Origin: a virus
Lineage: Duplodnaviria > Caudoviricetes
DNA length: 64,000 nucleotides
Virus record (IMG/VR): IMGVR_UViG_2710264778_000001
Coordinates: 165,130-229,129 of that record
Strand: one strand, 5' to 3'
In this document: piece after piece, positions 6,141-61,543 of the stretch
Layout of the letters: every line of letters starts with the position of its first letter
How positions within the stretch are numbered: position 1 is the stretch's first letter
Made by a program: the position numbers and the translations under genes
The notes under the pieces: generated by a model
Told to the model about the DNA's origin: nothing
The model's database searches: none
The model's input: the letters and a program-made list of their open reading frames with translations, nothing else

Positions 6141-6173
6141 TTTCTACTCTTTTGTTATTGTTTTATTTTATTA

Positions 6174-44871: not shown

Positions 44872-45190
44872 TTAACCCTCCTTATCTTAATCCCAGTAAC
44901 TAATTTCTGTCTTTATTACTTCAATCAGATCATCTATTGTTTCAATCTTTTCATCATAATCAGCAAAAGCGAAGAACTCGTCTACTAATAATGGATTAGC
45001 TTGATTTTCATTTAACAGCTTTATTAGTTGAAGTAACCCTACTATCTTTGGTTGTTTTACATCTGCTTGTTCAAACTTTGGTATTTTTATTCTTTTCCAC
45101 TTCCTTTCAAACTTACTTATATTTTATCTTTATTACTTGTTTAGTTTAACATATCATTCCAATATTGTCAATTAATTATTTATAATTTGT

Positions 45191-45607
45191 TTACTTTAAA
45201 TTAATTATTACAATATCTTTGTCTAGCTTATTTTTTAGAAATAAACCTTCTAATTCACCAGCTTTGTTAACTAGCTCTTTATAAGTTTCTAGTATTTTTA
45301 AACCTTCTTCTATCGGTATTTCTTTGAATTTATCCTCACATCCATAATCACCTTCATACATAAATCCATCTTCAGTAACACCAAGTTCTATTGAAAACTT
45401 TTCTTCATTATTTGGATGTGATAAGTATATTAATATACCATTATATGTATCAAAATGATGTGTTGAGTTTAAATCAATTTTACAAGTTTTGTTGTATTTG
45501 ATTAATTCATCAAATGATATATTCATATCAAAGTTTTTAGAAACATTATACATTATTTTTTCACTTCCTTTCATATCTGGATTCGCATAAAATCCTCCAT
45601 TTATCAA
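45191..45607 (-). CDS. hypothetical protein
   Basis: Minus-strand ORF. Confidence 0.5.
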   Translation of the reverse strand: MINGGFYANPDMKGSEKIMYNVSKNFDMNISFDELIKYNKTCKIDLNSTHHFDTYNGILIYLSHPNNEEKFSIELGVTEDGFMYEGDYGCEDKFKEIPIEEGLKILETYKELVNKAGELEGLFLKNKLDKDIVIINLK

Positions 45608-45608
45608 C

Positions 45609-45929
45609 TTACCATTTTAATATAGGTTCTTCTGATTCATCACTACACCCAACCAAAGGTATAATTCTAAGCCAAGACCTACCATCACTTACTAGCCAAT
45701 TTCCAGTTTTCTCTGATTTTTTAATATCTTGTTCTTTAAAAGGTGATTGTCTAATCCAATCTTGAACCGCTTCTTCCTCTGTATTTCCTTTGCATATGTA
45801 ATATCTATAGATACTATATCTCATTTCTGAACCCTGTTCTCCATATCCGATATCATATATCAAATATTCATTTCTTCCATAATACAATTTCCTTTTTGGT
45901 GTTTTGTATTTATCTGATGGATAATTCAT
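45609..45929 (-). CDS. hypothetical protein
   Basis: ORF with AGGAGG RBS. Confidence 0.55.
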   Translation of the reverse strand: MNYPSDKYKTPKRKLYYGRNEYLIYDIGYGEQGSEMRYSIYRYYICKGNTEEEAVQDWIRQSPFKEQDIKKSEKTGNWLVSDGRSWLRIIPLVGCSDESEEPILKW

Positions 45930-45969
45930 ATCAATTTACCTCCTTTTATATTACATTTCTTGAACAGTT

Positions 45970-46074
45970 AATTTGCTCATATGGATAGCTGACTTTTTAT
46001 CAGCCTATCCTCAAGGAATCTTTGATGTATTTATGAAAACTATTGAGTAGGTTATCTACCCATATGAACAAACT
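45970..46074 (-). ncRNA. candidate structured RNA (multi-stem junction)
   Basis: A 13-bp closing stem (UUUGUUCAUAUGG/CCAUAUGAGCAAA) encloses three hairpins; lies downstream of the promoter at 46122-46150. Confidence 0.45.
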
Positions 46075-46428
46075 ATTTAATTTTATTAATATTATTTATA
46101 TTTTATCTTTACCACTTCTTAATCTTAACATTATTTAACTTTCGTGTCAATACTTAATTATATTTTATTTCTTTATGTATTTCTGTTAAGTTATTCCTTA
46201 GTTCTTGTTAATCATACCATTGTTTGGATATGCCTGTCAACTATTATTTTAAACTATTTTATATTTTGTTTAAATCAACATAAAACAGACTATTTATTGG
46301 GTTTTTAAATTCCCATTCAATGGTATCTCTGAATCAAGTCAGGCTTAACCACAGGCGTTAAATAAAAGCCTTCTCTACATATGTTTTATTGTCAATAAAC
46401 AAAATATAAATAATTATTTACTCAACTA

Positions 46429-47898
46429 TTATTGTTCTAATATACTCTTAACCATCCAGAATGGCGTATTTAGATTTATTCTATTATCACCATATCTATT
46501 TTTAATATTTTCACTTGCATTTAAGTCAGCATTATTAGTATGACCACAGTTAACACAACAGAACGTCTCTTGAGTTTTCCTGTTTTCTTTACTAATACTT
46601 CCACAAACTGGACATTGTTGACTTGTAAACGCTGGATTTATCTTAGCAGTATTGATTCCAAAATCATCACAATACTTTAATAAATCTGTTTTAATATTTT
46701 GTATTTTTAATCTCTTCAATAGATAATTAACTTGTTTGCTATGTGTTTTAGAATAACCTATTTCTAAGTTTTCCATAACAATTAAATCATTTTCTCTACC
46801 TTTTAAAAATTGTTTTATTCTGTATCTGTTATCAGTCTTAACAAAGGTAGATAACTTTGTTTGTGATCTTAAATATCTATTGTCTGATAGTTTATAGTTT
46901 TCATCTTGTAATTTGATTTTTAAATGTTCTTCTAACCTTTGTCTATTAGCTTGCTTTTTAACTATTCTATCTAACTTATTTAATATAGCTTCATTCTGCT
47001 CCACTATTTCACCGTCTGAACAAGTAATAAGTTTCTTTAATCCTATATCAATTCCTATAATGTCTTTTACCTCATTCTTATCCTGTTTATCTGTCTCAAT
47101 TTCATAGCATCCAATTATTTCTATTCTATTATATTTATTTAATCTTAGTGTAAATGTATTTGCTAATTTACTACCTTCTAAAACTTGTTTATGATAGTTA
47201 GAAAATTTAACTGGAATAATAAGCTTTTCAAATATAGCCTTATTTCTTCTACCACTCAAAACAGTATTACTATCTATAGTAAATATCCATTGAAACTCTT
47301 TTGTCTCAACCTTAGTGGTGTGAGCTGTATTACAATGAACTTGAAGTTCCTTTTTAACTGGTTGCTTGAACTTATCTTTAATCTCATAGAATCTATTTTC
47401 TATATCAGTTTTAAGTAATTCATATTCTTCTTTGTTATTTATAAGAACTTGAACTTTAGAAATAAAATCATAATATTTTGTATCTTTCTTCTTATATAAT
47501 TTAATTTGTTTAGATATATATTTTTCTAACCCCGTCCACTCAAATACGAACTTAGAGCAATAATTATATATAGCTTGTTGTTCCTTGTCATCAAATTTAA
47601 AGTGAATACTGTTTTTAATTCTTGAATGAATACTCATTAACTCCATATAGGTCAAGTGTAAAACTTGCATATAATGTTGAAATCTCATCTTAGGATTATC
47701 AAGCATTACTCTATTCTTATAAAAGTCCATCCATTTAGGATTATCTATAAGTAAATGATAATTGTCATTGCTCCAATAATGTTCTAGTAGATTATTTTCC
47801 ATTTCTCTACATTCATTTAAAAAGAACAGGATTCTATCTTTCTTAATGTCATTTACTGATTCATCTAAATAGAATTTAATACATCGTTTTTCTAACAT
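46429..47898 (-). CDS. tnpB: orphan TnpB/Cas12f-like RNA-guided nuclease
   Basis: RuvC-I GIDIG, RuvC-II VMENL, TSQQCPVC..CVNC Zn finger, RuvC-III NADLNAS.NI; no tnpA adjacent. Confidence 0.88.
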   Translation of the reverse strand: MLEKRCIKFYLDESVNDIKKDRILFFLNECREMENNLLEHYWSNDNYHLLIDNPKWMDFYKNRVMLDNPKMRFQHYMQVLHLTYMELMSIHSRIKNSIHFKFDDKEQQAIYNYCSKFVFEWTGLEKYISKQIKLYKKKDTKYYDFISKVQVLINNKEEYELLKTDIENRFYEIKDKFKQPVKKELQVHCNTAHTTKVETKEFQWIFTIDSNTVLSGRRNKAIFEKLIIPVKFSNYHKQVLEGSKLANTFTLRLNKYNRIEIIGCYEIETDKQDKNEVKDIIGIDIGLKKLITCSDGEIVEQNEAILNKLDRIVKKQANRQRLEEHLKIKLQDENYKLSDNRYLRSQTKLSTFVKTDNRYRIKQFLKGRENDLIVMENLEIGYSKTHSKQVNYLLKRLKIQNIKTDLLKYCDDFGINTAKINPAFTSQQCPVCGSISKENRKTQETFCCVNCGHTNNADLNASENIKNRYGDNRINLNTPFWMVKSILEQ

Positions 47899-47948
47899 TG
47901 TAATACACCTCCATTTCTTTTATATTTTATTTATTTACTACATTTACT

Positions 47949-47977
47949 ATTATATTCCTATATTTATACTCTGTCAA
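47949..47977 (-). promoter_or_regulatory. consensus sigma-A promoter of orphan tnpB
   Basis: TTGACA-N17-TATAAT. Confidence 0.8.
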
Positions 47978-48089
47978 TAGTTAGTTATGTATATTTTATT
48001 TATATTGTGCTGACTTGGTAACTTAGCTTGTATTTATATATTACTACTAATATTATCCAAAGTCAACACATATTTAATTATATTTTGTT

Positions 48090-48413
48090 TTATTTAGTGT
48101 TATTTGGCTTGCTAACTAGTCCAATAAAATGCATAATTATCATAAAAATATTTACTATAGGTACAAAACACATTACAAAACACATTAGTTCAACTAATAA
48201 TTTATTATTATCAAAAACATCAAGCATACTACTTGCTATATATCGTTTTGATTCATCTGGATTAATAACATTGACTATATCCATAACATCTTTCTTTGTT
48301 GGTGTTTTATCACGTTTTAATACTTTTCTTTGAATAAATAATTTAATTTTGTTTAATATGTATAAAGTTACAGCTATTTTAATTAATGTTATATGCATTG
48401 TTAATAAAAACAT
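48090..48413 (-). CDS. hypothetical membrane protein
   Basis: Hydrophobic N- and C-terminal segments. Confidence 0.55.
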   Translation of the reverse strand: MFLLTMHITLIKIAVTLYILNKIKLFIQRKVLKRDKTPTKKDVMDIVNVINPDESKRYIASSMLDVFDNNKLLVELMCFVMCFVPIVNIFMIIMHFIGLVSKPNNTK

Positions 48414-48414
48414 T

Positions 48415-48735
48415 TTAATTTTCCTCCATTACTTTAATTCTTCTTTTAAATTCATCATTGCCACAAATTTCATCATTGAAATACAAACCTTTTTCCCAAC
48501 CATTATTTAATCTGCTCATAAACTTATAAATCAAATAATGTCCCTTATCAATAATCTTAGAAATTTTAATTTCATCTTCACATTCAAATCCACTAATACT
48601 ATGTTTATAAATAAGAATATCTCCTACTTTAGCCAATGGCGTTTCTTTCCCTTTTGATTCACATTGCTTTGCCTTCTTTTCATGTCTATGTACTTTGTTA
48701 CATATCTCACATTGATAGCACTTAATTTCTCTCAT
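48415..48735 (-). CDS. hypothetical protein with N-terminal CxxC
   Basis: YQCEIC...A..CE motif. Confidence 0.55.
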   Translation of the reverse strand: MREIKCYQCEICNKVHRHEKKAKQCESKGKETPLAKVGDILIYKHSISGFECEDEIKISKIIDKGHYLIYKFMSRLNNGWEKGLYFNDEICGNDEFKRRIKVMEEN

Positions 48736-48809
48736 TCATATCATTCTCCTTTGAAATTATTTATAATTTATTTACATTCCAATAAAATACATTTTTTATG
48801 TACTCTTAT

Positions 48810-48856
48810 ATACAACATATAGTTTATACCAAACATCTAAACACTATATGTTGTAT
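48810..48856. promoter_or_regulatory. tandem NrdR-box-like 16-mers (alternatively a terminator hairpin)
   Basis: ATACAACATATAGTTT (48810) and ACACTATATGTTGTAT (48841), with starts 31 bp apart. Confidence 0.55.
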
Positions 48857-48868
48857 ATGTTTTTAGTC

Positions 48869-48997
48869 TTATTGTTGATTTTCTATAATAATACTAAGTT
48901 GTCCACATGCTGAACCAGATTCAACTTCTGCTTTTGTAGCAATTGCTACAGCATAATCATAACCTTCAGCTTCTAATTGGTTTTTGATTTCTTCCAT
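48869..48997 (-). CDS. 42-aa peptide equivalent to the RlmN/Cfr C-terminus (ACGQL); not in ORF track
   Basis: AGGAGG RBS and ATG; MEEIKNQLEAEGYDYAVAIATKAEVESGSACGQLSIIIENQQ*. Confidence 0.85.
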   Translation of the reverse strand: MEEIKNQLEAEGYDYAVAIATKAEVESGSACGQLSIIIENQQ

Positions 48998-49419
48998 AAT
49001 GATACCTCCTTTTCATTTTGATATTCTTTATGTATTAATGTGAAACCTAGTTGATTTAATATTTTAAAATAATCCCTATATGTTTCACTAAACCATATTT
49101 CATTTCTAGGAATTATAAATCTATACCAAAGTCTATCTAAAAAGAAATTAGATTTATAATATTCTTTTCTGCATTCAATTATTTTAATAGTTCCATCCAT
49201 TTTTAAATATGTATATAATTTATTTATTACAATATCTATATCTTTTATATGGTGTATTACATTTCTTAAATGAAATTTATCTACTGTGTTTTCTTTTAAT
49301 CCAATTATTTCATTATTACTAACATCATAATAATAATTTAAATATGGAGCTTTTGTTATATCACAAGTTTTATATCCTTCTTTTGGATTATAACCACTTC
49401 CAAAATCTATCTTAAGCAT
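48973..49419 (-). CDS. class I SAM-dependent methyltransferase
   Basis: IDFGSG motif I, CD, VIHH and LK.DG motifs. Confidence 0.75.
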   Translation of the reverse strand: MLKIDFGSGYNPKEGYKTCDITKAPYLNYYYDVSNNEIIGLKENTVDKFHLRNVIHHIKDIDIVINKLYTYLKMDGTIKIIECRKEYYKSNFFLDRLWYRFIIPRNEIWFSETYRDYFKILNQLGFTLIHKEYQNEKEVSLWKKSKTN

Positions 49420-50138
49420 GTATTACCTACTTTATCACAATAAGATTCCCACTTACAAAAATTACCCACTGGAGAAATTATAATATCTGTATCGTCATAT
49501 TTACTATAATGTGCAAACACTCCAAATTCATGACCATTCCATGTGTAACTTAAAAAATTATGTCCATCATCTTTTATAAATGTAGCAGGTAACTTTTTTT
49601 CAAAATCAAATTCTCCATATCTACCCATTAAATCTTCACATACTACAACATAAAAATCATCTTCAAGAATTACTTTTAGTATTTCAACTAATTTATCTCC
49701 TGTTGATTCCCAACACTTAGGTATATTAATTCTTGTGTTTGGTACATACTTTTTACAAATTAAAGCTTGTTCTCTTCTTTGTTTATATTGCTCTAATGAA
49801 GATATTGATATTGCAACTTCTGTTAATCCAGCTTCAGAATAACTTTTCATTCGTTCTTCATTTAGTAATATTCCATTAGTAACTAAACAAACATCATTTT
49901 CAACATTATCTCTTGTGAGTCTGATGAATTCAGGTAAATTATCAATTAATGTTGATTCTCCACCCATAATAGTTGCTCTTTTTAACTTTCCTACTTTAGC
50001 CATTGTTTCTTTTGCTTTCTCAATATCTAATCTTAATTTTCTTTTATCTGGCTGATAACAGAAATAACAATTAGGGCTCATATTACAATCTAAATTCGTA
50101 ATTATTCTATATCTAAAAATTCCATCTTTCACACTCAT
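49407..50138 (-). CDS. radical SAM protein (Cx5Cx2C variant)
   Basis: TNLDCNMSPNCYFCY, MGGE, VTNG and AISI motifs. Confidence 0.85.
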   Translation of the reverse strand: MSVKDGIFRYRIITNLDCNMSPNCYFCYQPDKRKLRLDIEKAKETMAKVGKLKRATIMGGESTLIDNLPEFIRLTRDNVENDVCLVTNGILLNEERMKSYSEAGLTEVAISISSLEQYKQRREQALICKKYVPNTRINIPKCWESTGDKLVEILKVILEDDFYVVVCEDLMGRYGEFDFEKKLPATFIKDDGHNFLSYTWNGHEFGVFAHYSKYDDTDIIISPVGNFCKWESYCDKVGNTCLR

Positions 50139-50150
50139 TTTTAATTACCT

Positions 50151-50939
50151 TTAAACTAGATTAATTCCAGTTATAATACCCTTTCCCATATGATTCTTCT
50201 CAGAAACTTCATTTACATTGATAGGTGATAACTTTACAAAGAAAAAATCTTTATTAAAGTATTCTTTAAGTTTACACATATCAAAGTCCGCTTCATCAAC
50301 TAAAGTTAAATTAATTGTTGTTTTAAGATTACTTTGAGTTCTGATTTGTCCTAATTCTCTAATGGTTAATTTATTTACAAATGGTATTAAATCATTTCTT
50401 CTATCATCGTCAAAAGAATGTAATGATATTTGCAATGTTATATTATCTTTTATAAAACTAAAATCTGAACCTTTAACCCCTATAGTAGATATGTAATGAT
50501 GTGTATTAGGATATTTTTCATTGATAATTGAAATAGCCTTTTTAACTTCTTCAATGTTTAAAAATGGTTCGCCCATTCTAGTATAATTGATCTTAAATTC
50601 TTGACTATTTAATGGACTATAATCTTTATTCTTAGAAATAATAAATTCTACTTGTTCTACTATTTCTTCGGCAGTTAAATTTCTATATCTTTTTAATTGA
50701 CCAGTTGCACAGAATTTACATCTTACAGGACATCCACTCATACATGAAACTCCTATCATCCATCTTTCTTTTCTACTACCTAATTCATTATTATCTAGTC
50801 CATTTTGCTTTCTACCTATTGCATCCTTTGTATAGTAAGGTAAAAATGTATCTGTCACTTCTAATGGATAACCATCTTCTGTTTTTAAGGCATATACATT
50901 ACCATTTGAAAAACTTTTATTTGCTAAAACTTTTAACAT
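50151..50939 (-). CDS. RlmN/Cfr-like radical SAM protein lacking its C-terminus
   Basis: VSCMSGCPVRCKFCATG, RNLTAEEIVEQV, MGEP, IST.G and ISLH....RR..LIP motifs; stops before ACGQL. Confidence 0.85.
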   Translation of the reverse strand: MLKVLANKSFSNGNVYALKTEDGYPLEVTDTFLPYYTKDAIGRKQNGLDNNELGSRKERWMIGVSCMSGCPVRCKFCATGQLKRYRNLTAEEIVEQVEFIISKNKDYSPLNSQEFKINYTRMGEPFLNIEEVKKAISIINEKYPNTHHYISTIGVKGSDFSFIKDNITLQISLHSFDDDRRNDLIPFVNKLTIRELGQIRTQSNLKTTINLTLVDEADFDMCKLKEYFNKDFFFVKLSPINVNEVSEKNHMGKGIITGINLV

Positions 50940-51003
50940 ATCAATTCATTTCCTCTCATTTTTATATTTTGTTCACATTCACTTAAAACTAATATTTTAA
51001 AAT

Positions 51004-51579
51004 CTAGTATTCTTTGATAATTTCATTCTCTGCTGTTTCACTCCATAATCTAACTGCATCTTTACCATTGTCAATCCACCAACAACCTTCATCAAATACT
51101 ACTATTCCAGTAAAGTCTGTATCGTCTCCAGTTACAGTTTCTAGTTGATGAACTTCCATTCCTTCAAAAATCATATTTCCATTGATATCATTTATTCCTG
51201 TATATTGACCTACGCTATTTTCTTGAACTTCTATAAAATCAGTATCAGCAACACTTATTCTTGAATTGATATAATATTTATCTACTAAATCCAAAGTATC
51301 TACATGTAAATCTCCATAATGCCAACAATCTAAATTATCTTTTACTCCAAACCAATATTGACTAGCTTCTCTATAATCAATATATTTCATACCATCATAG
51401 GTGTAGTCTCTTACCTTATGTTTATGTACACAAACATTACAAAGTTCAACTAATTCATCTTCAGCATGATTATTGTTCTTATCATTTATAAAAACTTTCT
51501 CACCTTCACCATAACTAAAATCCCTACCACAATCTTTACAAGTACCATATTTATCATCTACCCAATCATAATGTGCCAT
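51004..51579 (-). CDS. YopX-family protein
   Basis: W.YGDL and SVGQYTG..D.NG..IFEG motifs. Confidence 0.7.
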   Translation of the reverse strand: MAHYDWVDDKYGTCKDCGRDFSYGEGEKVFINDKNNNHAEDELVELCNVCVHKHKVRDYTYDGMKYIDYREASQYWFGVKDNLDCWHYGDLHVDTLDLVDKYYINSRISVADTDFIEVQENSVGQYTGINDINGNMIFEGMEVHQLETVTGDDTDFTGIVVFDEGCWWIDNGKDAVRLWSETAENEIIKEY

Positions 51580-51800
51580 AAGTTTACCTCCTATAATTTA
51601 TTTCGCCTTAAAAATCTCATTTTAGACAGATTTAAATTCTATTTTGGCTTTAATTAATAAACAAATCAACTCATCTATTTCAGTAAACTTTAAATAAAAA
51701 CCACAATCAGCTTGTTCACAATTTAAAAATACATCTATATTGTCAATTTTCTTAACACTAAAATTATCTGTTCCAATTCTATTGATTATATTATCCATTC

Positions 51801-51986
51801 TTAATTTTCCTCACTTTCATTTGCTTGAATTCCATATTCATAAGCTTCGCAATCTTCTTTTTCATCGCATGTATCACAATTATAACTTTCTAAATTTCCA
51901 GACTCAATACACTCTACACATATATCACAGTCATTTTCACTGCAATATAATAATTTATTATCTTCTCCGCAACAATTACAACTCAT
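51801..51986 (-). CDS. Cys-rich hypothetical protein
   Basis: Nine Cys in 61 aa; RBS present. Confidence 0.5.
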   Translation of the reverse strand: MSCNCCGEDNKLLYCSENDCDICVECIESGNLESYNCDTCDEKEDCEAYEYGIQANESEEN

Positions 51987-52048
51987 TTTAACTCACTCTC
52001 CATTTATTTATTCTTTATTTATGTATAATTTATTCATATTATATGTAT

Positions 52049-52600
52049 TTAACCTTTAAATTCTTGTAATCTAGCATACTCACCAAAGTATTTCAATTCT
52101 GCCTCATTTCTTACTCGCAGTGCTTCTTCTATGTCGTCATAATACCCTAGGTTGATTGTTTTCTTATTATATTTAATTGTTACTGACCACTTGTTTACAT
52201 TTTTGAAGTAATACCAAAAGATACCTTTATAACCACTCTTATTACTTTTCTTCATACCTAAATTTTTATTATTATCAGCTTGAGTACAAATTCTTAAATT
52301 AATTTTTCTATTATTTAATTCATTGCCATCAATATGATCAACTGTTAATCCTTTTGGTGCATTCATTATGTATCTATATAATAATGTAGAATCTAATTCA
52401 TCATTCTTAGGTGTCACTACATTAAATGTGTTTTCGGGTCGCTTTCTTTTGCTTACATTCCAATGATATTTTTATACCTTCTCTTTATCTTCTGAATCTA
52501 TGTATACTTCTTTTAGTCCATGCGTTGGACTATTAATTAATAATATGGTTGTCCCGTCCTCCAAATCTTTATATTCATTTGTTACTGTATATACTCCCAC
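52049..52600 (-). pseudogene. HNH-AP2 homing endonuclease with an in-frame stop
   Basis: Frame opens at GTG 52600, has TAA at 52474-52472, then continues in frame to VDHIDGNELNNR..NLR (HNH) and an AP2-like SGYKG...LG...R..AE..YFG. Confidence 0.7.
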
Positions 52601-52647
52601 TTATAAAAACTCAACTCCTTTAATATATATTTTATTTAATCAACTTC

Positions 52648-53112
52648 TTAGTCTTCTTTTATATACCATTTACCTTCGTTAATAATTTTACTAGTATGCT
52701 TTTCTGTTTTCCCTAACATCTCAAAAATACATTTTATAGAACTCCAACAATTATTCCAATAACTATTTAATACACATGTACAATTTTCAATATCTCTATA
52801 TTTCTCATTTAATTCAGTAACATCAACTTTAATCATTTTTCCTTCTAATCCAGCATTTATTGCCTCCATAAAACTTACAGGTTTTTGTAATGGAATAAAT
52901 TTAGCATTGATAAGTGTTTTTGATGCTCTTTCTATATCAGCATATTCTTTAAACTTAATTCCACTTTGCAAATTAACAGCTATTAATTTTGTATTATCTC
53001 TTATTCTACAAGCATCATCATGTTTATAATAGCAATCTATTTTTACTTTAAATTCCGTTCCATAAGGCATATTACTTGCTTCAATTATATTTAATTCTTC
53101 CATACTTATCAC
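52648..53112 (-). CDS. hypothetical protein
   Basis: Coupled ORF. Confidence 0.55.
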   Translation of the reverse strand: MISMEELNIIEASNMPYGTEFKVKIDCYYKHDDACRIRDNTKLIAVNLQSGIKFKEYADIERASKTLINAKFIPLQKPVSFMEAINAGLEGKMIKVDVTELNEKYRDIENCTCVLNSYWNNCWSSIKCIFEMLGKTEKHTSKIINEGKWYIKED

Positions 53113-53333
53113 TCTCCTAATTCTTCATCCCAATCTTTGCAACAATCAGGGCATTTATTAGTTTCATTTAAATTACAAGCTAAACAATCCATTTCTACTT
53201 GAATTTCTGCACATTTTACATTTAAATATATAACTCTTGGATTAGTACATTGATCATTTTTATTATGATCGCATTTAAAATTTACACAATTCATAAACTT
53301 CTCTCCTTTTAATTTAATATTTACCAACTTCAA
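53109..53333 (-). CDS. Cys-rich hypothetical protein
   Basis: Multiple Cys residues. Confidence 0.5.
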   Translation of the reverse strand: MKLVNIKLKGEKFMNCVNFKCDHNKNDQCTNPRVIYLNVKCAEIQVEMDCLACNLNETNKCPDCCKDWDEELGE

Positions 53334-53526
53334 AATAGCATGTATTATCTAACCAATGTGATCCTGTTTTAGTGTATCCCATTGTATCATCAATATATTT
53401 AACCATATGTATAATATCATTTTCTAAACATTGTTTTTGATATTTGCATTCATTGCAATTTACTTTTACAGTTGGAATTTTACTTGCCTCTATAAGATTT
53501 TTAAATGTTCCTTTAGGTACTAACAT
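53314..53526 (-). CDS. hypothetical protein
   Basis: ORF with RBS. Confidence 0.5.
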   Translation of the reverse strand: MLVPKGTFKNLIEASKIPTVKVNCNECKYQKQCLENDIIHMVKYIDDTMGYTKTGSHWLDNTCYFEVGKY

Positions 53527-53576
53527 AAGTTTACTACCTCCTAACCTTTTAAACTTTCCATTTTAAAAAATGACTA

Positions 53577-53960
53577 TTATTCTTTGCTAAGTTTCTTTTT
53601 CATAAATACTTCAAATGCCAATAAATCCATTTGCTCAATTAGTTCTTTTTTATCTTTTTCGCTTACACCTATATATTTTCTTACAAACTCTTTAAGGGTT
53701 TCAATATCTTGTAAGCCATTAGTTATTTTATTTTGAGCTTGTAGTTTTAATAACTCATCCATTTTAATATTTAATTCATCCATTAATTTTTCTCTTGAAT
53801 TAGTAGAAACAGTTAATGTAAATTTAACTTTATTTGTATCAATCTTAAAAGCTTCATTTGTTGTAATAATCTCTACTAATTTATCTTTTTCTGCAACAGA
53901 TATAACATTATTCAATGTTTGCATATTGCCATTAGATAAATTTTCTAAATAAATAACCAT
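53577..53960 (-). CDS. hypothetical protein
   Basis: ORF with RBS. Confidence 0.55.
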   Translation of the reverse strand: MVIYLENLSNGNMQTLNNVISVAEKDKLVEIITTNEAFKIDTNKVKFTLTVSTNSREKLMDELNIKMDELLKLQAQNKITNGLQDIETLKEFVRKYIGVSEKDKKELIEQMDLLAFEVFMKKKLSKE

Positions 53961-53998
53961 TTATAATTCACTCCTTTTTTAATTACCTATATTTTATT

Positions 53999-54265
53999 TT
54001 AATAACTCCAACCTTCTCTAACACAATTCTTTAAACCATTCAATATATGTAAATAACGCTCCACAGTTCCGATCCGTTCTAAGTATTCTGGCATCCCTAT
54101 ATAACCTATATTATTGTTTTTACAATATTTATCTTTTGAGTAATTAATATTAATTCCATATGTATCTTGATATATCTCTGACATTTTGGTGTATATATTT
54201 GATATGTCAAGGTTATTTTGCTTACAAAACTGTTCTACTAGGGTAATTAAGTATTCTGCTTTCAA
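53999..54265 (-). CDS. hypothetical protein
   Basis: Coupled ORF. Confidence 0.5.
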   Translation of the reverse strand: MKAEYLITLVEQFCKQNNLDISNIYTKMSEIYQDTYGININYSKDKYCKNNNIGYIGMPEYLERIGTVERYLHILNGLKNCVREGWSY

Positions 54266-54267
54266 TA

Positions 54268-54735
54268 TTAAAATCCCCCTCTATAACATTTAATTTTTGC
54301 TTCATCTCCAAGAATATTCTTTAATAATTTAGTTATACTTTCTTCAAATTCCTCTTTGTTATGAGGTATCTTTTCATTAGATTTATTTTCAACTTTGGGT
54401 TCTTGTTTTGTATTCTTTCTGTAATTATCAAATATTTCTTTATTGTAAAATATTTTCGTTTGTCCAAAACTTTCATCAAGTAAATATCCTTGATTCATTA
54501 TTAATTCTTTCTTTACTTCATCATGAAGTGGAAATTTAACCAATGCAAATTTAGGATACTCACACTTACCATCTATAGCCTGTTTAAATTTATTTTCCAT
54601 ATCATAGAGTGCATTTTCAACTAATCTCATTTGTAATTGTATTTCTCTCTGCAATCTAATTTCTTGTCGTTTCTTTTCTTCATCTTTCTTATGTATTTCA
54701 TTTAGTAAACTATTAAATTGATTTGCTTTAATCAT
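54268..54735 (-). CDS. hypothetical protein
   Basis: ORF with RBS after a promoter-like region. Confidence 0.55.
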   Translation of the reverse strand: MIKANQFNSLLNEIHKKDEEKKRQEIRLQREIQLQMRLVENALYDMENKFKQAIDGKCEYPKFALVKFPLHDEVKKELIMNQGYLLDESFGQTKIFYNKEIFDNYRKNTKQEPKVENKSNEKIPHNKEEFEESITKLLKNILGDEAKIKCYRGGF

Positions 54736-54836
54736 TTTAAATCTTTCCTTTCTTTAATTATATATATTTTATTTGCTTCTTGATATAATCTTACTACCAT
54801 AATATTCTAAAGTCAACAATTATTTATAATTTATTT

Positions 54837-55337
54837 TTATTCCCAAATTTCTTTATGTTTAATTATCTCTTCAATTCTTTTACTCTCACGTTTACCACAC
54901 CAATTACATACTCTTGTAGTGCCATCTGTATATGTAAATCTAGTATTATTAACATCTTGATACCATCCATCATGATCTATAAATAAACATCTGCCTATTT
55001 CTTCGTATCTTTTCCAAAACTCATCTGTAATATCTATGTATTCATCTTTAATATTAATCCTACAACTTAATTTATATATATTTTGACCAGTTACTATTTT
55101 AGACAATGAATTACCTATCACATCAGCATCATTCATATTACCTATATAAATATTTGCAAGTGGTAGAAAATTCATATCTAACTCTATTAAATGTCCATCA
55201 TAATTATCTACAGGATCAAAGTAAACTTTATTATATCCTTGTTTAATATATTTCTTTAAGAACTTATATAAATTACTAGAATATTTATCACTTATTTTAA
55301 TATCATTTGGTTTAAATTTATTAATATCTAATATCAT
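54837..55337 (-). CDS. hypothetical phage protein
   Basis: DIT..FW..Y...GRC and C.WCG motifs. Confidence 0.6.
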   Translation of the reverse strand: MILDINKFKPNDIKISDKYSSNLYKFLKKYIKQGYNKVYFDPVDNYDGHLIELDMNFLPLANIYIGNMNDADVIGNSLSKIVTGQNIYKLSCRINIKDEYIDITDEFWKRYEEIGRCLFIDHDGWYQDVNNTRFTYTDGTTRVCNWCGKRESKRIEEIIKHKEIWE

Positions 55338-55350
55338 TTTTATCTCTCCT

Positions 55351-55563
55351 TTATTTTATTCCTAAATAATTTGCATACACACTTACTAAGTAATAAGCCG
55401 CATTATACCCTATGATAATAGCAGGAATATCTATTAACACTTGAACCCAAACTAAATTTGTATTAATATTTGTATATTTTTTCAATATTATTTCGCTTAA
55501 CTTCCATATTGGTAAACTACATATCCAAACTAAAGTAAATGCAACTATATAAATCTTAAACAT
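55351..55563 (-). CDS. hypothetical membrane protein
   Basis: Two hydrophobic segments. Confidence 0.5.
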   Translation of the reverse strand: MFKIYIVAFTLVWICSLPIWKLSEIILKKYTNINTNLVWVQVLIDIPAIIIGYNAAYYLVSVYANYLGIK

Positions 55564-55886
55564 TATAATCCTCTACCTTTCAGTTTTAGTTTATTATATA
55601 ATTTGTTCCTATTATCGACACGTTTTAAATGCTTTTTGTAAAATCTGTATTTATTGTGATCAATCATTCTTCCCATTTCTAAAAATAATTTTCTTAATCC
55701 TTTTGATTTCTTAAATTTTGTAATTTGTATCTCACCAGTAAAAGATTTAAATGGAGCATCCACGGTTTTAGTTTCTATATCATTAATCTTTAATTTATTA
55801 ATTTGAATATCTTTTAAATCAAATGTACATACTTTAATTCCATTTGACCATAATGTACAATTGTTAAATTTTAATTCTTCTCCCAT
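55563..55886 (-). CDS. hypothetical protein
   Basis: ORF with RBS. Confidence 0.55.
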   Translation of the reverse strand: MGEELKFNNCTLWSNGIKVCTFDLKDIQINKLKINDIETKTVDAPFKSFTGEIQITKFKKSKGLRKLFLEMGRMIDHNKYRFYKKHLKRVDNRNKLYNKLKLKGRGL

Positions 55887-55908
55887 AAATAATTCTCCTT
55901 TATATTAT

Positions 55909-56292
55909 TTAATTTTGTGATTTATTTTTATAAAATAATTTTTGAAATATAGTTCTTTTTTTATTTTTTAAATTCTCTCTAGTTCCTTCTATTTTTAGTT
56001 CAATTTCTTTATTATTAAATATTATATTATTATTTAGTTCATTAAAACTATTCCAACACTCATTATAAAAATTTTTATCATCTTCATTTGTAAAAATATA
56101 ATCTGTGTATAATTCATGTCTGCTTAATTTTATATTATATTTATATTGAAGAATATTATAATCTGTTCCATCTATTGTGATTTTATCATTACTTTTAAGC
56201 TCCCTTTCTGTTTTTATAATTTTAACTTTTTTATTTTCAAGTACTTTCTTTTCTGTTTTAAATATTGGATTATGTAATATATTACGTTTCAA
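55909..56292 (-). CDS. hypothetical protein (5' end possibly frameshifted)
   Basis: Minus-strand ORF. Confidence 0.45.
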   Translation of the reverse strand: MKRNILHNPIFKTEKKVLENKKVKIIKTERELKSNDKITIDGTDYNILQYKYNIKLSRHELYTDYIFTNEDDKNFYNECWNSFNELNNNIIFNNKEIELKIEGTRENLKNKKRTIFQKLFYKNKSQN

Positions 56293-56519
56293 AAGTTCTA
56301 GTTCTTTTATATCATCATATGAATTCGTTTATAAATATAAATATACGGTTTTTTTAAATATTCTTCAAAAGAACAAGGTAAAACAGCAATATTCCTAATC
56401 CATAAAGGGTTAATATCTGGAACACATACATTGTATTTAAATTTAACTTTTTGTCCAAATATACAGTATTCTATCATTATTTCTTCAACTCCTTCATCCT
56501 TATAAAATTAAATTTTTAT

Positions 56520-56702
56520 TTAGACTTGTAATATGCTATCATCATACCATAAAATCCTATATCCATATTCTCTTTCACCAAAGAACATTGATTGAAAATA
56601 CTTTATACAGTCATTTATATTTTCGCCTTTATATATGTAAGTACAACACGTTTGTTTATCTTCGATTTCTAACTCAATTTTGACTGGCTCACTAACTACC
56701 AT
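56520..56702 (-). CDS. hypothetical protein
   Basis: ORF with RBS. Confidence 0.5.
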   Translation of the reverse strand: MVVSEPVKIELEIEDKQTCCTYIYKGENINDCIKYFQSMFFGEREYGYRILWYDDSILQV

Positions 56703-56716
56703 ATTATTTATCTCCT

Positions 56717-57259
56717 TTAATTATTAACTTTCAATCTGTTTAAACTCTCTCCTATAGCTTCAGTATATCCACAACCACCATTATAATAACTTAGTACATA
56801 AGAAATAGTTCCATCTGAATTTTCTTTTGCCTCAAATATATCGTCACCACAACACTCTCTGTCCTCTATAACTTCATATACATTACCTTTATGTATAATA
56901 TATCTTTCGTCAGAATCTCTTATAGCTTCTTCATACGAGTCATAATAGTTGTCTAATCGTTTTATTCCTAGCATTCTCTTACATTGTTCTTCTAAAGTTT
57001 CATTTTCTAATTTTTCTATTAATTTAATTCTTTGAACAATTTTATATTTAAATTCGTCTTCACCTACAATTGTCATTCTGATAAGCCATCTTTGACCAGT
57101 ATATACTTCAAGTTCTGTCATAGTATCATAATAATAACTTATACCTTCATCATCTTTAAAACAATATTGATTTCCTTGGTTTGGATATTTCTCACTCACT
57201 TCATGGTCTGAAGCAATTGTTACAGGCATTTCAATTCTTTTTTGTTCTATTTTAATCAT
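56717..57259 (-). CDS. hypothetical protein
   Basis: ORF with AGGAGG RBS; YYNGG motif. Confidence 0.6.
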   Translation of the reverse strand: MIKIEQKRIEMPVTIASDHEVSEKYPNQGNQYCFKDDEGISYYYDTMTELEVYTGQRWLIRMTIVGEDEFKYKIVQRIKLIEKLENETLEEQCKRMLGIKRLDNYYDSYEEAIRDSDERYIIHKGNVYEVIEDRECCGDDIFEAKENSDGTISYVLSYYNGGCGYTEAIGESLNRLKVNN

Positions 57260-57307
57260 TTTATCCTCCTAATTTCTGCTTAAAATGGCTCTTTTAAATG
57301 AACTACC

Positions 57308-57568
57308 TTATATTAATTTCAGCATCCAATCATCATTTTTATCACTATAAGTTTCTATAAATTTATCTATATTTTTCATTATTTCATCCTCTGTATCTCC
57401 TTCAATTTCTTGTTTACCCGAATCTAATCTATTGTCTTTATTCCATATAAAATCAAAATAAATAATTACACAATACTCAATATTACCTTCTTTATCATTT
57501 GGGCTTTCAATATAAACGTCTTTAAAGCCTTTTAATAATATTTTTTCTTTCAATGTCATTATAAGCAC
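57308..57568 (-). CDS. hypothetical protein
   Basis: Single ORF between two TAAAA-N6-TTTTA sites. Confidence 0.55.
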   Translation of the reverse strand: MLIMTLKEKILLKGFKDVYIESPNDKEGNIEYCVIIYFDFIWNKDNRLDSGKQEIEGDTEDEIMKNIDKFIETYSDKNDDWMLKLI

Positions 57569-57603
57569 GTTCCTTTCATCATAAAATTATTGTTTTATAA
57601 ATA

Positions 57604-57837
57604 TTATTCAACTTCTTCTTTATTTCTTTCAATTTGCTTATTTAATTCTTTTTTTATATTAAACGCCTCTATAAGTATATTAATGCAATTAATTACATTT
57701 TCATCTTTTTGTAATGTTCCAAGTTTAATTAAATCCTGAATAACATCATATTTAAACTTTATTGATTGCAAACTTCTTGTTTCTAAGCCTTTAGTATCCA
57801 ACATAATTATTTTACCTCCATTTCTTTCTAAATTCAT
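57604..57837 (-). CDS. hypothetical protein
   Basis: Minus-strand ORF. Confidence 0.5.
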   Translation of the reverse strand: MNLERNGGKIIMLDTKGLETRSLQSIKFKYDVIQDLIKLGTLQKDENVINCINILIEAFNIKKELNKQIERNKEEVE

Positions 57838-58031
57838 TATTATTATTTTAATGTTTTTTGATTTAATATAACTTCATTACTAATTTGATAATCATTTAAT
57901 GCTTGTTTTATTATATTTAATATACGATTTTCGTTATCATCTTTTTCATTTATAAGTAATTTAATATCATATTGGATTATCATAATTTCACCTCACTTCA
58001 TTTAAAAGATATATTTGATTAAGACTTTGGA

Positions 58032-58319
58032 TTATTTCAAATCCAATAATTTCAAACAACTAGAAACATGATCTTGAGAACTTTTATTATTTTCTGCTAT
58101 AGCACTAAACATTGCAGTTTCAAAGTTATTTACACCAAAGTTATAAAAACATTTTTTACCTTCAATAAATGGGAAATATAAAGAAAAATTTTCATTGTAT
58201 CTAACTTTAGCAATTTGATATTTTCCCTCTATATTTATTACATCTAATACTTCCACTTTAGCCTTTGTTTTCTCATCCTCTAATCTGAAAAATTCTTTTA
58301 CTTTTTCTATCATATCCAT
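58032..58319 (-). CDS. hypothetical protein
   Basis: ORF with AGGAGG RBS. Confidence 0.55.
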   Translation of the reverse strand: MDMIEKVKEFFRLEDEKTKAKVEVLDVINIEGKYQIAKVRYNENFSLYFPFIEGKKCFYNFGVNNFETAMFSAIAENNKSSQDHVSSCLKLLDLK

Positions 58320-58392
58320 TTTTCATTCCTCCTAAATTTTATTAAAATATAGTTTTATAATTACGAGGAAGAAAATTCTTCCTACATTTTAA

Positions 58393-58722
58393 TTAGTCTT
58401 CATTGTAGATTGACTCTTCACCATTCATAAATCTAACAACATCCACATCTAAATTTTCACCAAAATAGGCTTCATACATTTCCGGAGAGATTGGTGTAAT
58501 TTTTGCTTTATTTCTATTTAGTATACTTGCATTCTCATCTACTATTATTTCTGTTTCAAATACAAGCCAGTTTCTATCTACTACTATTGACTCTATTGTG
58601 ATAGCTTCTGGTTCATATTTATTATTAACAAATAATCCTCTTTCTTCACTATATTCATATATAGGCATTTCATGATCACTCCATGCTAAATTATCTAAAC
58701 TTATTGCTTTTACCTTTTTCAT
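58393..58722 (-). CDS. hypothetical protein
   Basis: ORF with RBS. Confidence 0.55.
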   Translation of the reverse strand: MKKVKAISLDNLAWSDHEMPIYEYSEERGLFVNNKYEPEAITIESIVVDRNWLVFETEIIVDENASILNRNKAKITPISPEMYEAYFGENLDVDVVRFMNGEESIYNED

Positions 58723-58988
58723 ATTCTCACTACTCCTTTTATTCTACTATTATTAATTATTATATCCTAAAATCTCTGAATACTCGTCACAACCTAAAGG
58801 TTGGACGGTTCTAAATTAATTAATACTCTTACTAACTCTCATTTATAGCATTGTTATCATCTATATCTTACAACATTTAGTCTATTATATTAATTATCAT
58901 TAGACTTTCTTGCCAATTTCTATATTTAGAAAATTAACGACAAAGGCACGATTCTAATACCTTTTTTATTTGCAATTTTTATTATTAA

Positions 58989-60431
58989 TTATATTCCCAT
59001 ACTTGAAATTAATCTATTATCACTATTTTTAATTCTTATTATTTCAATATCATGCAATGTTTTAAAACTATCAAATTCACTTAGTAATTTATCTCTATCT
59101 ATTGTATCTAATTTCATTTTATCATCTATTATTACATTCTTTATTATTAAACCACTCATTAAATCTCTTTGTATTTTGCAATTCTCAAACTCATTCCATC
59201 TTTGAGATAATTTCTTTTTAATATATTCATCAGTAAATGGATTATATTGACTAGCCTTAACTTTATAAGTATTAACTTTAAATAACCATAAACTTTCATA
59301 TTTTAATTTTCTATTTAGTATTTCTAAAAACATACTCGGCGCTTTGTTTGCTAGACTCTTTCCAAATCTTTTCTTTTTATTAAATTTGCCTGTCTTCTCA
59401 TTTATAGTTGTATTTTTACTTCTAGCTTGTAATCCACTATAATTCATAGTTTCGACTTTTATTATATTTCCTAAAGATAAAACATAATTAGCTAGTTCTT
59501 CATGAGATTGTTTTCTAATCCTAGCCATTTTTCCTTGAATATCTCTTAGTTTATTTTGAGTTTTAATATAATTCTTGGATTTAATCCATTTATCTCTATT
59601 ATGAATATTAATTGTTTCATCTTCATTATATTTATTAGGATTGTTAGCACGTCTTTGTCTATCTAATTTTCTAGATAATCTAGTTTTAACTTTTTGAATA
59701 TTATTAATTCCCTCAGCTAATTCTAATAACTTAGTTTCATTATCTGATACAATAGCTACTGTTCTAGTTCCAATATCTAGCCCAACTTCACCTTGTCCAA
59801 TATCTCTTTTTTTAGGTGGTATTCCTGTTAAAACTAATTGAACATAATATAAATTTCTATTTCCCTTTTGTTTTCTTATTATTCTACAATATTTAATTTT
59901 ATCCTGTAATGCTAATTGTGCATATTCATCATTATTTCTAACAACGCATTCTAAAATTAAATCATTGAAATATATTCTACCATCTCTATATCTAATTCCT
60001 TGTCTATTAGTTAATCCTTCGATAGAATACATTTCATTGTATCTAATAAAATTAACTCGTTTAGCATTTCCAAATCTCATTCTATCTATTGTTTTTATAA
60101 CTCTAGCAGATAATGCTTGAACTGTATTTGCATCTATATCTTTAAATTCATTAACTCTTAAAGAAGTTGAATATTTATTTAAAGCAAATTTATCATAGTT
60201 AGCATATTCTTCTGCTTGTTTAAATAAACTAGATTTAGTTTTCTTATCAGTTTCTATTCTTGCTTGTTGATATAATTTAGATTCTCTCATTAGTCTAAAT
60301 CTTCTTAATCCTTCATCTAGTAAAGCATTGTATAGTTTTCTTGATAATTCAAAGTATTTATCTAATGCCACTATTTCTGATTTATTTGTTTTAAGCTTTA
60401 AAGTTAATACATAACTATCTGTTTTCGCCAT
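58989..60431 (-). CDS. tnpB: TnpB RNA-guided endonuclease
   Basis: R.LYN, GLDIG, KVE, ASQ and QRD motifs; follows tnpA. Confidence 0.88.
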   Translation of the reverse strand: MAKTDSYVLTLKLKTNKSEIVALDKYFELSRKLYNALLDEGLRRFRLMRESKLYQQARIETDKKTKSSLFKQAEEYANYDKFALNKYSTSLRVNEFKDIDANTVQALSARVIKTIDRMRFGNAKRVNFIRYNEMYSIEGLTNRQGIRYRDGRIYFNDLILECVVRNNDEYAQLALQDKIKYCRIIRKQKGNRNLYYVQLVLTGIPPKKRDIGQGEVGLDIGTRTVAIVSDNETKLLELAEGINNIQKVKTRLSRKLDRQRRANNPNKYNEDETINIHNRDKWIKSKNYIKTQNKLRDIQGKMARIRKQSHEELANYVLSLGNIIKVETMNYSGLQARSKNTTINEKTGKFNKKKRFGKSLANKAPSMFLEILNRKLKYESLWLFKVNTYKVKASQYNPFTDEYIKKKLSQRWNEFENCKIQRDLMSGLIIKNVIIDDKMKLDTIDRDKLLSEFDSFKTLHDIEIIRIKNSDNRLISSMGI

Positions 60432-60480
60432 AAATATTCACTTCCTTTCGTTTTATATAATATATTTTGTTACTAATATA

Positions 60481-60509
60481 ATTATACTCTTTTTAGTATA
60501 ATTTGTCAA
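60481..60509 (-). promoter_or_regulatory. consensus sigma-A promoter for IS tnpB
   Basis: TTGACA-N17-TATAAT. Confidence 0.75.
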
Positions 60510-60512
60510 ATA

Positions 60513-60932
60513 TTACTTACCTTGATTTTCAATATATTTCTTTACTACTTCTAGGCTTACGCTTCCTACAGTAGCAATAAAAGTTGACCTACTCCAAAAC
60601 TTTCCTCCCCATAATTTATTACGTTTTATATATGGAAATTCTTCAAATAATCTATGAGCAGAAATTTGTTTTATTAAAGAGACACATTTACAAATACCAA
60701 ATCTAGGATTACAAGTTATTATCATGTGAATATGGTCTCTATCTGTTTCAATATCTTCTATGATAAAATCATAAGCTTTAGAAACTTCTATACAAATTTC
60801 TTTTAATCTATCTGAAACTTTACCTACTAATATTTTATGTCTATATTTAGGACAAAATACTATATGATAACTACAACGAAAAACTAAATGTTCACTCGAA
60901 TAATATTTATCATTTTCTCTATATTGTTTCAT
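60513..60932 (-). CDS. tnpA: Y1 HUH transposase
   Basis: YHIVFCPKYR, DHIH, LWGGKFWS and catalytic YIENQ motifs. Confidence 0.95.
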   Translation of the reverse strand: MKQYRENDKYYSSEHLVFRCSYHIVFCPKYRHKILVGKVSDRLKEICIEVSKAYDFIIEDIETDRDHIHMIITCNPRFGICKCVSLIKQISAHRLFEEFPYIKRNKLWGGKFWSRSTFIATVGSVSLEVVKKYIENQGK

Positions 60933-61543
60933 TTTATTCTCCTCAAAGGGCTATTCCTCTGCACAAGCTAAAGCTTGGCAGTTACCTAGCCTAATTTTAT
61001 ATGTAATTTATTATTGTATAATTCATTTATGCTTATACCAAACTCAATTACCATGTTTTTCACCTCCTTACAAATACTATATTACCATAATTTATTTTAT
61101 CTGTCAAATACTTATTTATATTTGTTTACATCTATATAAAATCACAGATTTATTGGATTTTTCATAATATTTATATTCTTTACTTTAACTTAATTATATT
61201 TTATCCTTAACAGTATTATACAATAAATCAAAACCTTCTCTAGTAAATTTTATCCTTGGTAAATATTCATCATAATTTACAGCATATTCTCATTCTGATA
61301 CTCACAATTTAACTTTTGTTTTCTTCTAATTTGATATATTATATTTTCATTTAATAGTATATCAATTAAATTTTGATAATTGATTTTAAGTTTTCTTTCT
61401 ATATCTGCTGTGCTAAAATATTTAATCTTTTTATTTATTTTCTAATGACTTTGTTTTCATTAATTAATTTTCCTAGTCTTTCTTTTAACATCCAACCTTC
61501 TAATAATAAATTATCTTTTCATTTATTATTATTTTATCTCCAT

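Follow-up and report, generated by a model that had tools for sequence, protein, structure and literature searches.

A split RlmN/Cfr-like radical SAM system in phages places the predicted methyl-carrier cysteine on a separate small peptide

Introduction

The DNA analyzed here is a 64,000-nucleotide (nt) stretch from a virus of the class Caudoviricetes (IMG/VR record IMGVR_UViG_2710264778_000001, positions 165,130 to 229,129; hereafter the window). Its minus strand carries a module of four closely spaced genes that encode, in this order, an RlmN/Cfr-like core protein, a second radical S-adenosylmethionine (SAM) protein (rSAM2), a minimal class I SAM-dependent methyltransferase (MT) and a 42-amino-acid (aa) cysteine-containing peptide. 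RlmN and Cfr, the latter a major enzyme of antibiotic resistance, are textbook class A radical SAM methylases, and their mechanism needs two cysteines within a single chain. A sequence-only reading of the window had described four coupled open reading frames (ORFs) and had taken the shortest as the displaced methyl-carrier segment of the largest; all four are present at the coordinates listed in Table 1. As set out below, the core and the peptide probably make up, as two subunits, a single class A radical SAM enzyme of the RlmN/Cfr type, and its substrate is at least as likely to be free adenine or a nucleotide of the nicotinamide adenine dinucleotide (NAD) pathway as rRNA or tRNA.

Results

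An RlmN-like core without its C-terminal element

In profile searches the core matched RlmN best (TIGR00048, E 4e-24), followed by Cfr. Its AlphaFold2 (AF2) model, with a predicted local distance difference test score (pLDDT) of 93.8, aligned to Escherichia coli RlmN (3rf9_A) over 231 residues with Z 22.9 and a root-mean-square deviation of 2.7; Cfr followed at Z 16.1 and the next family at Z 12.6. The cluster cysteines C70, C74 and C77 form an invariant CX3CX2C motif, and the RlmN-type core fold is present.

Both ends of RlmN are lacking. Residue 1 of the model corresponds to residue 79 of E. coli RlmN, so that the N-terminal helical RNA-binding domain (RlmN residues 1-78) is missing and the first cluster cysteine lies at residue 70, compared with residue 113 in the canonical protein P0333. 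At the other end, the confident part of the model stops near RlmN residue 324, and the C-terminus (...GINLV) falls where the C-terminal helix-strand-Cys loop of RlmN would start. When the family is aligned, the end of the core coincides exactly with the beginning of the canonical segment of helix, strand and AACGQL. There is thus no C355 loop and no methyl-Cys in the same chain, and the position of E. coli RlmN C118 is occupied by Gly63. CGQ was found in no core of this Gly type.

The 42-aa peptide corresponds to the missing element

When a profile of the peptides was compared with one built from genuine RlmNs (346 positions), it matched positions 300-339 of the latter (hhalign 90.5%, E 1.4e-6). 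Because of this placement, and because the core ends where the canonical segment begins, the peptide is, on the grounds of homology, the missing C-terminal helix, beta-strand and methyl-Cys loop of RlmN (E. coli C355). When the peptide profile was run against the PDB sequences with HMMER, which does not reach the short RlmN tail, only chance matches were obtained.

The putative methyl-carrier, Cys31, sits in the SACGQL motif. In alignment A3 the residues L8, A16, A18, A20, T21, E24, A30, C31, G32, Q33 and L34 are invariant (A16 is only nearly so in alignment A1). Conservation runs along the whole peptide, which matches a structural element of RlmN, and does not divide it into leader and core. 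The ratio of nonsynonymous to synonymous polymorphism (pN/pS) was 0.135 with pS 0.66 (27 core codons, 35 distinct DNA sequences); the peptide is under purifying selection. Translation signals are retained as well: AAAAGGAGGT is kept before the peptide ATG, inside the 3' end of the MT gene, in the Firmicutes-type loci L122, L125, L131 and L142. Protein databases contained 88 stand-alone peptides of 37-66 aa. The hhalign placement, the peptide's own AGGAGG site and the pN/pS value together bear out the earlier assignment of this ORF as the missing piece of RlmN.

Vibrio phage D479 carries a variant, a 93-aa ORF (L003:4803-5084) with two tandem copies of the peptide and two AGAACGQMAIL units. Two copies would suit a peptide that is used stoichiometrically, or may just raise its dosage.

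The split is a family trait

The same core was found in about 150 loci of 51 lineages (a lineage being cores <85% identical to others; flanks of 4-6 kb per locus) on viral, metagenome-assembled genome (MAG) and isolate contigs, nearly all with a separate peptide. The peptide gene lay on the same strand for 78 of the 81 viral cores. By position, it was directly adjacent in 38 of these 81 loci and 1.2-1.4 kb downstream in 41, and two loci were without it. More distant viral loci had the peptide in 19 of 20 cases and genome contigs in 45 of 47; the latter belonged to isolates, Segatella copri and Bacteroides congonensis among them, and to MAGs with the labels Clostridia, Bacilli, candidate phyla radiation (CPR) and DPANN. 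Among named phages, the crAss-like Kehishuvirus tikkala has a 68% identical core with a 43-aa peptide gene 3 nt past it, Moorella phage MTATph1 has a 40-aa peptide gene 16 nt past the core, and in Pectobacterium phage Wc4 the peptide lies one gene further on. Members of the family are frequent among crAss-like and jumbo gut phages and are annotated there as "hypothetical" or as rRNA methyltransferases.

Among the best 120 of 2,943 core homologues, nearly all were 258-285 aa long and ended in ...NL[VIL], and those longer ones that were read had N-terminal additions only. No core-peptide fusion was found in searches among near-length and longer proteins, the longer-protein search with the peptide being weak (9 candidates, no canonical RlmN recovered). 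A fusion by read-through or frameshifting was ruled out: core and peptide genes are separated in relatives by 16, 20 or 22 nt, often out of frame, in many loci, and the peptide gene precedes the core in L141 and L163. Because all homologues, near and far, consist of two chains and selection on the peptide is purifying, the proposed split is conserved, and the counter-scenario named with it, of single-chain homologues and an unconstrained peptide, does not hold. By these sequence comparisons, the split is an ancient, selected and widespread two-subunit variant of the class A radical SAM methylases, a family trait and not decay. We found no published account of such a form in the literature on RlmN, Cfr-like, class A or crAss radical SAM proteins in phages, nor in the papers on NAD reconstitution pathways (NARP).

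The junction between the two halves is a recurrent insertion point. In one relative, a gene for a GIY-YIG-type homing endonuclease lies exactly between core and peptide (L102:6792-7607).

The resolving cysteine is replaced by glycine

C118 of RlmN is indispensable for resolving the crosslink between protein and substrate (PMC9692996). The equivalent position, seven residues before the first cluster cysteine (C118 in E. coli RlmN, C105 in Cfr), is Gly in every split core, and Gly63 is invariant in alignment A5. Relatives that retain a cysteine there mostly carry CGQL in the same chain, including proteins of the Stenotrophomonas phage BUCTxx99 (319 aa) and the Salmonella phage Arash (309 aa). 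These two single-chain proteins resemble the split cores in lacking the N-terminal domain and are 35-40% identical to them over the core, but they keep the C118-type cysteine and an in-chain GGGCGQLW and belong to the other clade of the tree. In a quick maximum-likelihood tree, all 38 Gly-type sequences fell on one side and 16 Cys-type sequences on the other side of a branch with a Shimodaira-Hasegawa-like approximate likelihood ratio test (SH-aLRT) value of 97. C66, four residues before the cluster ligand, was considered as a general new resolving cysteine and rejected, since many lineages have Thr or Val instead. Since the C118 equivalent is always Gly, the split clade must either finish the reaction in another way or leave a peptide-S-CH2-substrate adduct.

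Other RlmN-like groups (P0292-P0325, P0268-P0350 and P0277/P0293) are also without a C118-type cysteine. One of them is single-chain with ...CDAG and SNCGQ; another (KIGVSL...YCFTN, 258-284 aa) ends right past the beta-strand and has no Cys loop; a third is single-chain with Thr at the C118 position and a C-terminus very like the phage peptide.

The genes between core and peptide

In the window, the rSAM2 and MT genes separate the two halves. rSAM2 matched PF04055 (E 5.7e-13), and its AF2 model (pLDDT 86.5) had as nearest folds MoaA (GTP 3',8-cyclase; Z 18.8), GDGT-MAS (17.2), BlsE (15.3), viperin (15.2) and PqqE (15.0); SuiB (14.9), SkfB (14.5) and CteB (13.6), which together with PqqE are peptide-modifying twitch/SPASM enzymes, followed. 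The similarity to MoaA extends over 228 residues, including the C-terminal region that binds the second cluster of MoaA, where rSAM2 has conserved cysteines. However, it is a likeness in fold only: identity is 17-18%, the hidden Markov model score is about 47 bits against cut-offs of 231-325, and in place of the C-terminal CX2CX13C of MoaA rSAM2 has the spacing FCxWExYC. With GDGT-MAS, BlsE, viperin and PqqE no more than 1.6-3.8 Z behind MoaA, no function follows from the modeled fold of rSAM2. In alignment A6 the first and second cluster cysteines are spaced as CX5CX2C in the subgroup of the window and as CX11CX2C, with an NESTGPNG insert, in most relatives. Six further cysteines are conserved (C84, C128, C142, C167, C228 and C234) and suggest an auxiliary cluster. 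A search of 50,697 isolate phage records returned no rSAM2 homologue.

MT matched phrog_5399 (E 5.7e-29) and, by structure, Methyltransf_11 clusters of the Atlas (TM 0.86-0.91); its Pfam matches were under the cut-off, so its assignment to class I is by phrog_5399 and the Atlas structures only. It has the class I fold, and the glycine-rich motif I (DFGSG) forms its N-terminal end.

The order core-rSAM2-MT-peptide recurs in 40 viral and 17 genome loci, with rSAM2 56-82% and MT 44-63% identical, and these 57 loci make up at least three diverged groups. In L119-L121 the rSAM2-MT pair lies about 1.2 kb beyond the peptide, and in L159/L161 MT and a 21%-identical rSAM2-like gene follow core and peptide. 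Because the four components recur together in differing orders, the gene content argues for a functional link among them. The four-gene synteny of the sequence-only reading thus stood for a subset of lineages (about 57 other loci); in 43 of the 51, the 4-6 kb flanks contain neither rSAM2 nor MT. We infer that rSAM2 and MT are accessory partners that occur in a minority of lineages and are co-transcribed with the core here.

In a single case, P0215 (181 aa, from an ENA contig of 2,478 nt), one continuous reading frame joins an MT homologue to the Cys peptide. This could be a true fusion or the result of a single indel in overlapping genes.

Module layout and flanking elements

The genes of the module are tightly packed, with a gap of 12 nt between core and rSAM2 and overlaps of 13 nt (rSAM2/MT) and 25 nt (MT/peptide). 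Both TAAAA-N6-TTTTA sites that had been described as bracketing the module are present (Table 1).

Table 1. Genes and sequence elements of the four-gene module (window coordinates)
Feature	Position	Strand	Remarks
RlmN/Cfr-like core	50939..50151	-	262 aa, GCPVRCKFC
rSAM2, second radical SAM protein	50138..49407	-	243 aa, CNMSPNCYFC
MT, minimal class I SAM-dependent methyltransferase	49419..48973	-	148 aa, DFGSG
Cys peptide	48997..48869	-	42 aa, SACGQL
AGGAGG Shine-Dalgarno site of peptide	49010..49005	-	within 3' end of MT gene, 7 nt before peptide ATG
TAAAA-N6-TTTTA palindromic site	50984..50999		45 nt upstream of core start codon
Second TAAAA-N6-TTTTA site	48783..48798		48 nt upstream of start of next gene (48735)
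A/U-rich perfect 16-bp hairpin	48808..48858	-	just past peptide stop, no U tract

The TAAAA-N6-TTTTA motif occurs 10 times in the window (at 2344, 13472, 23592, 26528, 48783, 50984, 51609, 56503, 57281 and 57582), where 2.6 occurrences are expected and the maximum in 100 shuffles was 6, an approximately fourfold excess. The three sites that were placed relative to genes lie 30-48 nt upstream of start codons. The motif may be a phage promoter, a regulator site or a boundary element, as judged from its position only. The hairpin past the peptide stop (minimum free energy -18 kcal/mol, z -3.3; 1 of 200 shuffles equally good) is a candidate for the 3' end of the four-gene transcript. Scans of the window for consensus promoters and terminators gave nothing above chance, and no terminator was found by consensus. 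From the flanking sites and the hairpin, the four genes therefore look like a single transcription unit; tight spacing, upstream site and 3' hairpin agree with the earlier description of the genes as tightly coupled.

The GC content is 25.8%. The first 15,928 nt of the record recur at window positions 45076-61009 (record 210,205-226,138) with 99.9% identity, and about 3 kb of other sequence follows this repeat in the record of 229,129 nt. The repeat is probably terminal redundancy or an assembly wrap-around of a gut-phage genome of ~210 kb. Because the four-gene module lies inside it, the module is present twice in the record. About 1 kb downstream of the module, a gene on the minus strand (46429-47898) encodes a TnpB-like protein of 489 aa (phrog_12300 and phrog_506, transposase; E 1e-31).

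NAD genes recur beside the core in relatives

All ORFs flanking the core were clustered over the 51 lineages, and families were checked with Pfam. The recurrent neighbours were rSAM2 and MT (8 lineages each), NadM-Nudix (7), a second type of radical SAM gene (6), NAD synthase (NadE; 5), NAPRTase (PncB; 4) and NAMPT (NadV; 3); every other family occurred in at most 3 lineages. No DNA-modification gene (kinase, glycosylase or transferase) and no protease or exporter gene was recurrent near the core in these lineages.

An NAD gene, of the kind that defines the NARP2/NARP3 and Preiss-Handler modules of NAD reconstitution and salvage, lies within about 4 kb of the core in 11 of the 51 lineages. Queries with NMNAT, NadD, PncA and PnuC added a few more loci with NAD genes. 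In L162 the genes for PncB, NadE, core, peptide and NadM are operon-tight. L131 and L135 have PncB, one further gene, core, rSAM2, MT, peptide and NadE, followed in L131 by NadD one gene later. In L157, L165 and L102, a gene that is NMNAT-like or nicotinamidase-like by tblastn queries and N-terminal motifs only overlaps the start of the core. For comparison, the combined share of sequenced phages with NARP1 and NARP2 is 5.4% (10.1101/2024.02.11.579819); a radical SAM partner is mentioned neither there nor in the NARP3 paper.

A different radical SAM gene (288-332 aa, with CX3CX2C and an SRHHYD motif) stands beside the peptide gene in at least six lineages, mostly between core and peptide (L054:6817-8165, L107:4327-5884, L117:6778-7665, L119:336-1553, L120:562-2092, L141:1811-2629 and L145:5129-6016). 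It is often preceded by a gene for a 110-210-aa protein with a Gly/Ser/Cys-rich tail that ends in Cys (...GRC, ...SPC or ...SSC), and the two look like an enzyme-substrate pair. In Bacillus phage Tsamsa (L087), a stand-alone MT homologue (3001-3432) lies 2 kb from a NARP3-like pair, a PnuC-like transporter and nicotinamide mononucleotide adenylyltransferase (5417-6405).

Discussion

Between the equivalents of E. coli RlmN residues 79 and about 324 the core retains the RlmN fold, the part that it lacks has its homologue in the peptide, and very distant phages conserve the two together. These observations support a two-subunit enzyme. By analogy with RlmN, its reaction would proceed as follows. 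The peptide would dock as the last helix and strand of the core barrel, its Cys31 would be S-methylated by one SAM, and a second SAM would be cleaved at the 4Fe-4S cluster. The resulting 5'-deoxyadenosyl radical would generate a peptide-S-CH2 radical, which would add to an sp2 carbon of a purine (or pyridine) ring. The adduct would then be resolved in some way other than through C118, or it would persist, in which case the peptide would be consumed.

As the RNA-binding domain is missing, MoaA and viperin are among the nearest folds of rSAM2 and NAD genes recur beside the core, we lean somewhat towards a free nucleotide, such as one of the NAD pathway, or free adenine as the substrate. MoaA and viperin act on nucleoside triphosphates. 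RNA comes slightly behind such a compound in our ranking, and DNA last.

The relationship to known class A enzymes is close but incomplete. RlmN (C2-methyltransferase of 23S rRNA A2503 and tRNA A37; PDB 3RF9/3RFA, 4PL1, 5HR6/5HR7, 6FZ6) shares with the phage system the fold (Z 21-23), the CX3CX2C, GEP, SLH and other core motifs, and the C-terminal helix-strand-AACGQL loop with the methyl-Cys, which in the phage system would be supplied by the peptide. It differs in being one polypeptide instead of two, in having C118 instead of an invariant Gly and in possessing the domain of residues 1-78. Cfr (C8-methyltransferase of 23S rRNA A2503; PDB 9P0P) has a similar fold and, by analogy, would share the same class A chemistry, but it is a single chain with both cysteines (C105 and C338), and neither C8 methylation of rRNA nor drug resistance is indicated for the phage system. 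On the Cfr family TIGR04432 the core reaches 56.8 bits against a cut-off of 550.

Several points weigh against the interpretation that we favour. On TIGR00048 the core scores 85.2 bits, far under the equivalog cut-off of 290, while the true RlmN P0333, run as a positive control, scores 344.5 bits. The docking of the peptide is drawn from homology only. A general base other than a cysteine could replace C118, which would amount to ordinary catalytic methylation. No NAD salvage gene (NAMPT/PncB, NMNAT/NadD, NadE or PnuC) was found by tblastn in the 229-kb record of the window, and 40 of the 51 lineages have no NAD neighbour in their flanks. Because of the former, the NAD lead is one that bears on the family and comes from relatives, not directly from this locus. 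MT and rSAM2 are absent from the 4-6 kb flanks in 43 of the 51 lineages, 87 phage records (83 from Bacillus phages) have an MT-family gene by itself, and the other inserts between the halves are unrelated genes (GIY-YIG endonuclease, small ORFs); MT could be a moron insertion here.

Of the alternatives, an ordinary two-chain RNA methyltransferase, which would form m2A or m8A catalytically on tRNA A37 or 23S rRNA A2503 of host or phage with another base doing the work of C118, has a real though low chance of being correct. The characterized relatives RlmN and Cfr all act on RNA adenine (PMC9692996), and a single-chain homologue lies inside the tRNA gene cluster of Stenotrophomonas phage BUCTxx99. 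However, that homologue sits in the other, C118-bearing clade, and the split cores have Gly at this position in every member and begin only after the N-terminal RNA-binding domain. The window contains no tRNA genes, and the recurrent neighbours are NAD genes and not translation genes.

A second possibility carries the two-subunit enzyme further and is, in our estimate, rather unlikely. Here the peptide would be a consumed co-substrate: the core would join peptide-S-CH2 to the adenine or nicotinamide ring of a free NAD-pathway nucleotide, and rSAM2 and MT could then convert the adduct, perhaps through C-S cleavage and S-methylation, into a modified NAD-type nucleotide or an inhibitor in the conflict of phage and host over NAD. 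If true, such radical SAM chemistry would be unprecedented and would give phages a counter-defence of a new kind.

It is improbable that the peptide is itself the substrate or product, a precursor resembling those of ribosomally synthesized and post-translationally modified peptides (RiPPs) or of a peptide-derived cofactor (compare PqqA and PqqE), co-opted from the tail of RlmN and acted on by core, rSAM2 and MT. The fold neighbours of rSAM2 (PqqE, SuiB, SkfB and CteB) and its extra conserved cysteines, the tandem peptide in one ORF of Vibrio phage D479, and the relatives with another radical SAM gene beside proteins with Cys-rich tails would all suit such a pathway. Yet the whole helix-strand-loop is conserved as an RlmN structural element with no division into leader and core, the recurrent neighbours include no protease or exporter, and in most lineages core and peptide occur alone.

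We give little credence to hypermodification of phage DNA bases, in which, as originally proposed for this locus, the peptide would be an alkyl carrier loaded by MT and elaborated by rSAM2. In some phages the module does lie among genes of replication and nucleotide metabolism (DnaB and nucleases in Kehishuvirus; ThyA, UvsX and a helicase in the Moorella phage), radical SAM enzymes occur in thymidine hypermodification, and one protein, P0215, joins MT to the peptide. Against this, P0215 could have arisen by one indel in overlapping genes, no DNA-modification gene recurs nearby, and the expense of two SAM per modified base would be high genome-wide. Loading by MT in particular is unlikely to be general, given that 43 of the 51 lineages have core and peptide without MT or rSAM2 in the flanks and that the MT family so often stands alone. 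Finally, a decayed rlmN-like gene broken by a two-gene cassette, with the 42-aa ORF as a relic, has virtually no chance of being right, since, although unrelated genes have been inserted between the halves in some phages, the break point is identical in about 150 loci, the peptide has a low pN/pS and its own conserved Shine-Dalgarno site, 38 of the 81 viral loci have it directly adjacent with no insertion, and no fused form emerged from the near-length or longer-protein searches (a weak negative).

On the two-subunit interpretation, a clade of phage enzymes has shifted the methyl-carrying cysteine to a peptide of some 40 residues and dropped the resolving cysteine. With such a two-piece enzyme the methyl-Cys step could readily be studied in trans, and one of two outcomes is predicted: the adduct is resolved by a new route, or peptide and substrate stay joined in a stable conjugate. 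That unrelated phages repeatedly have the enzyme embedded in their NAD salvage operons suggests that its substrate is not RNA and that it may take part in the contest over NAD.

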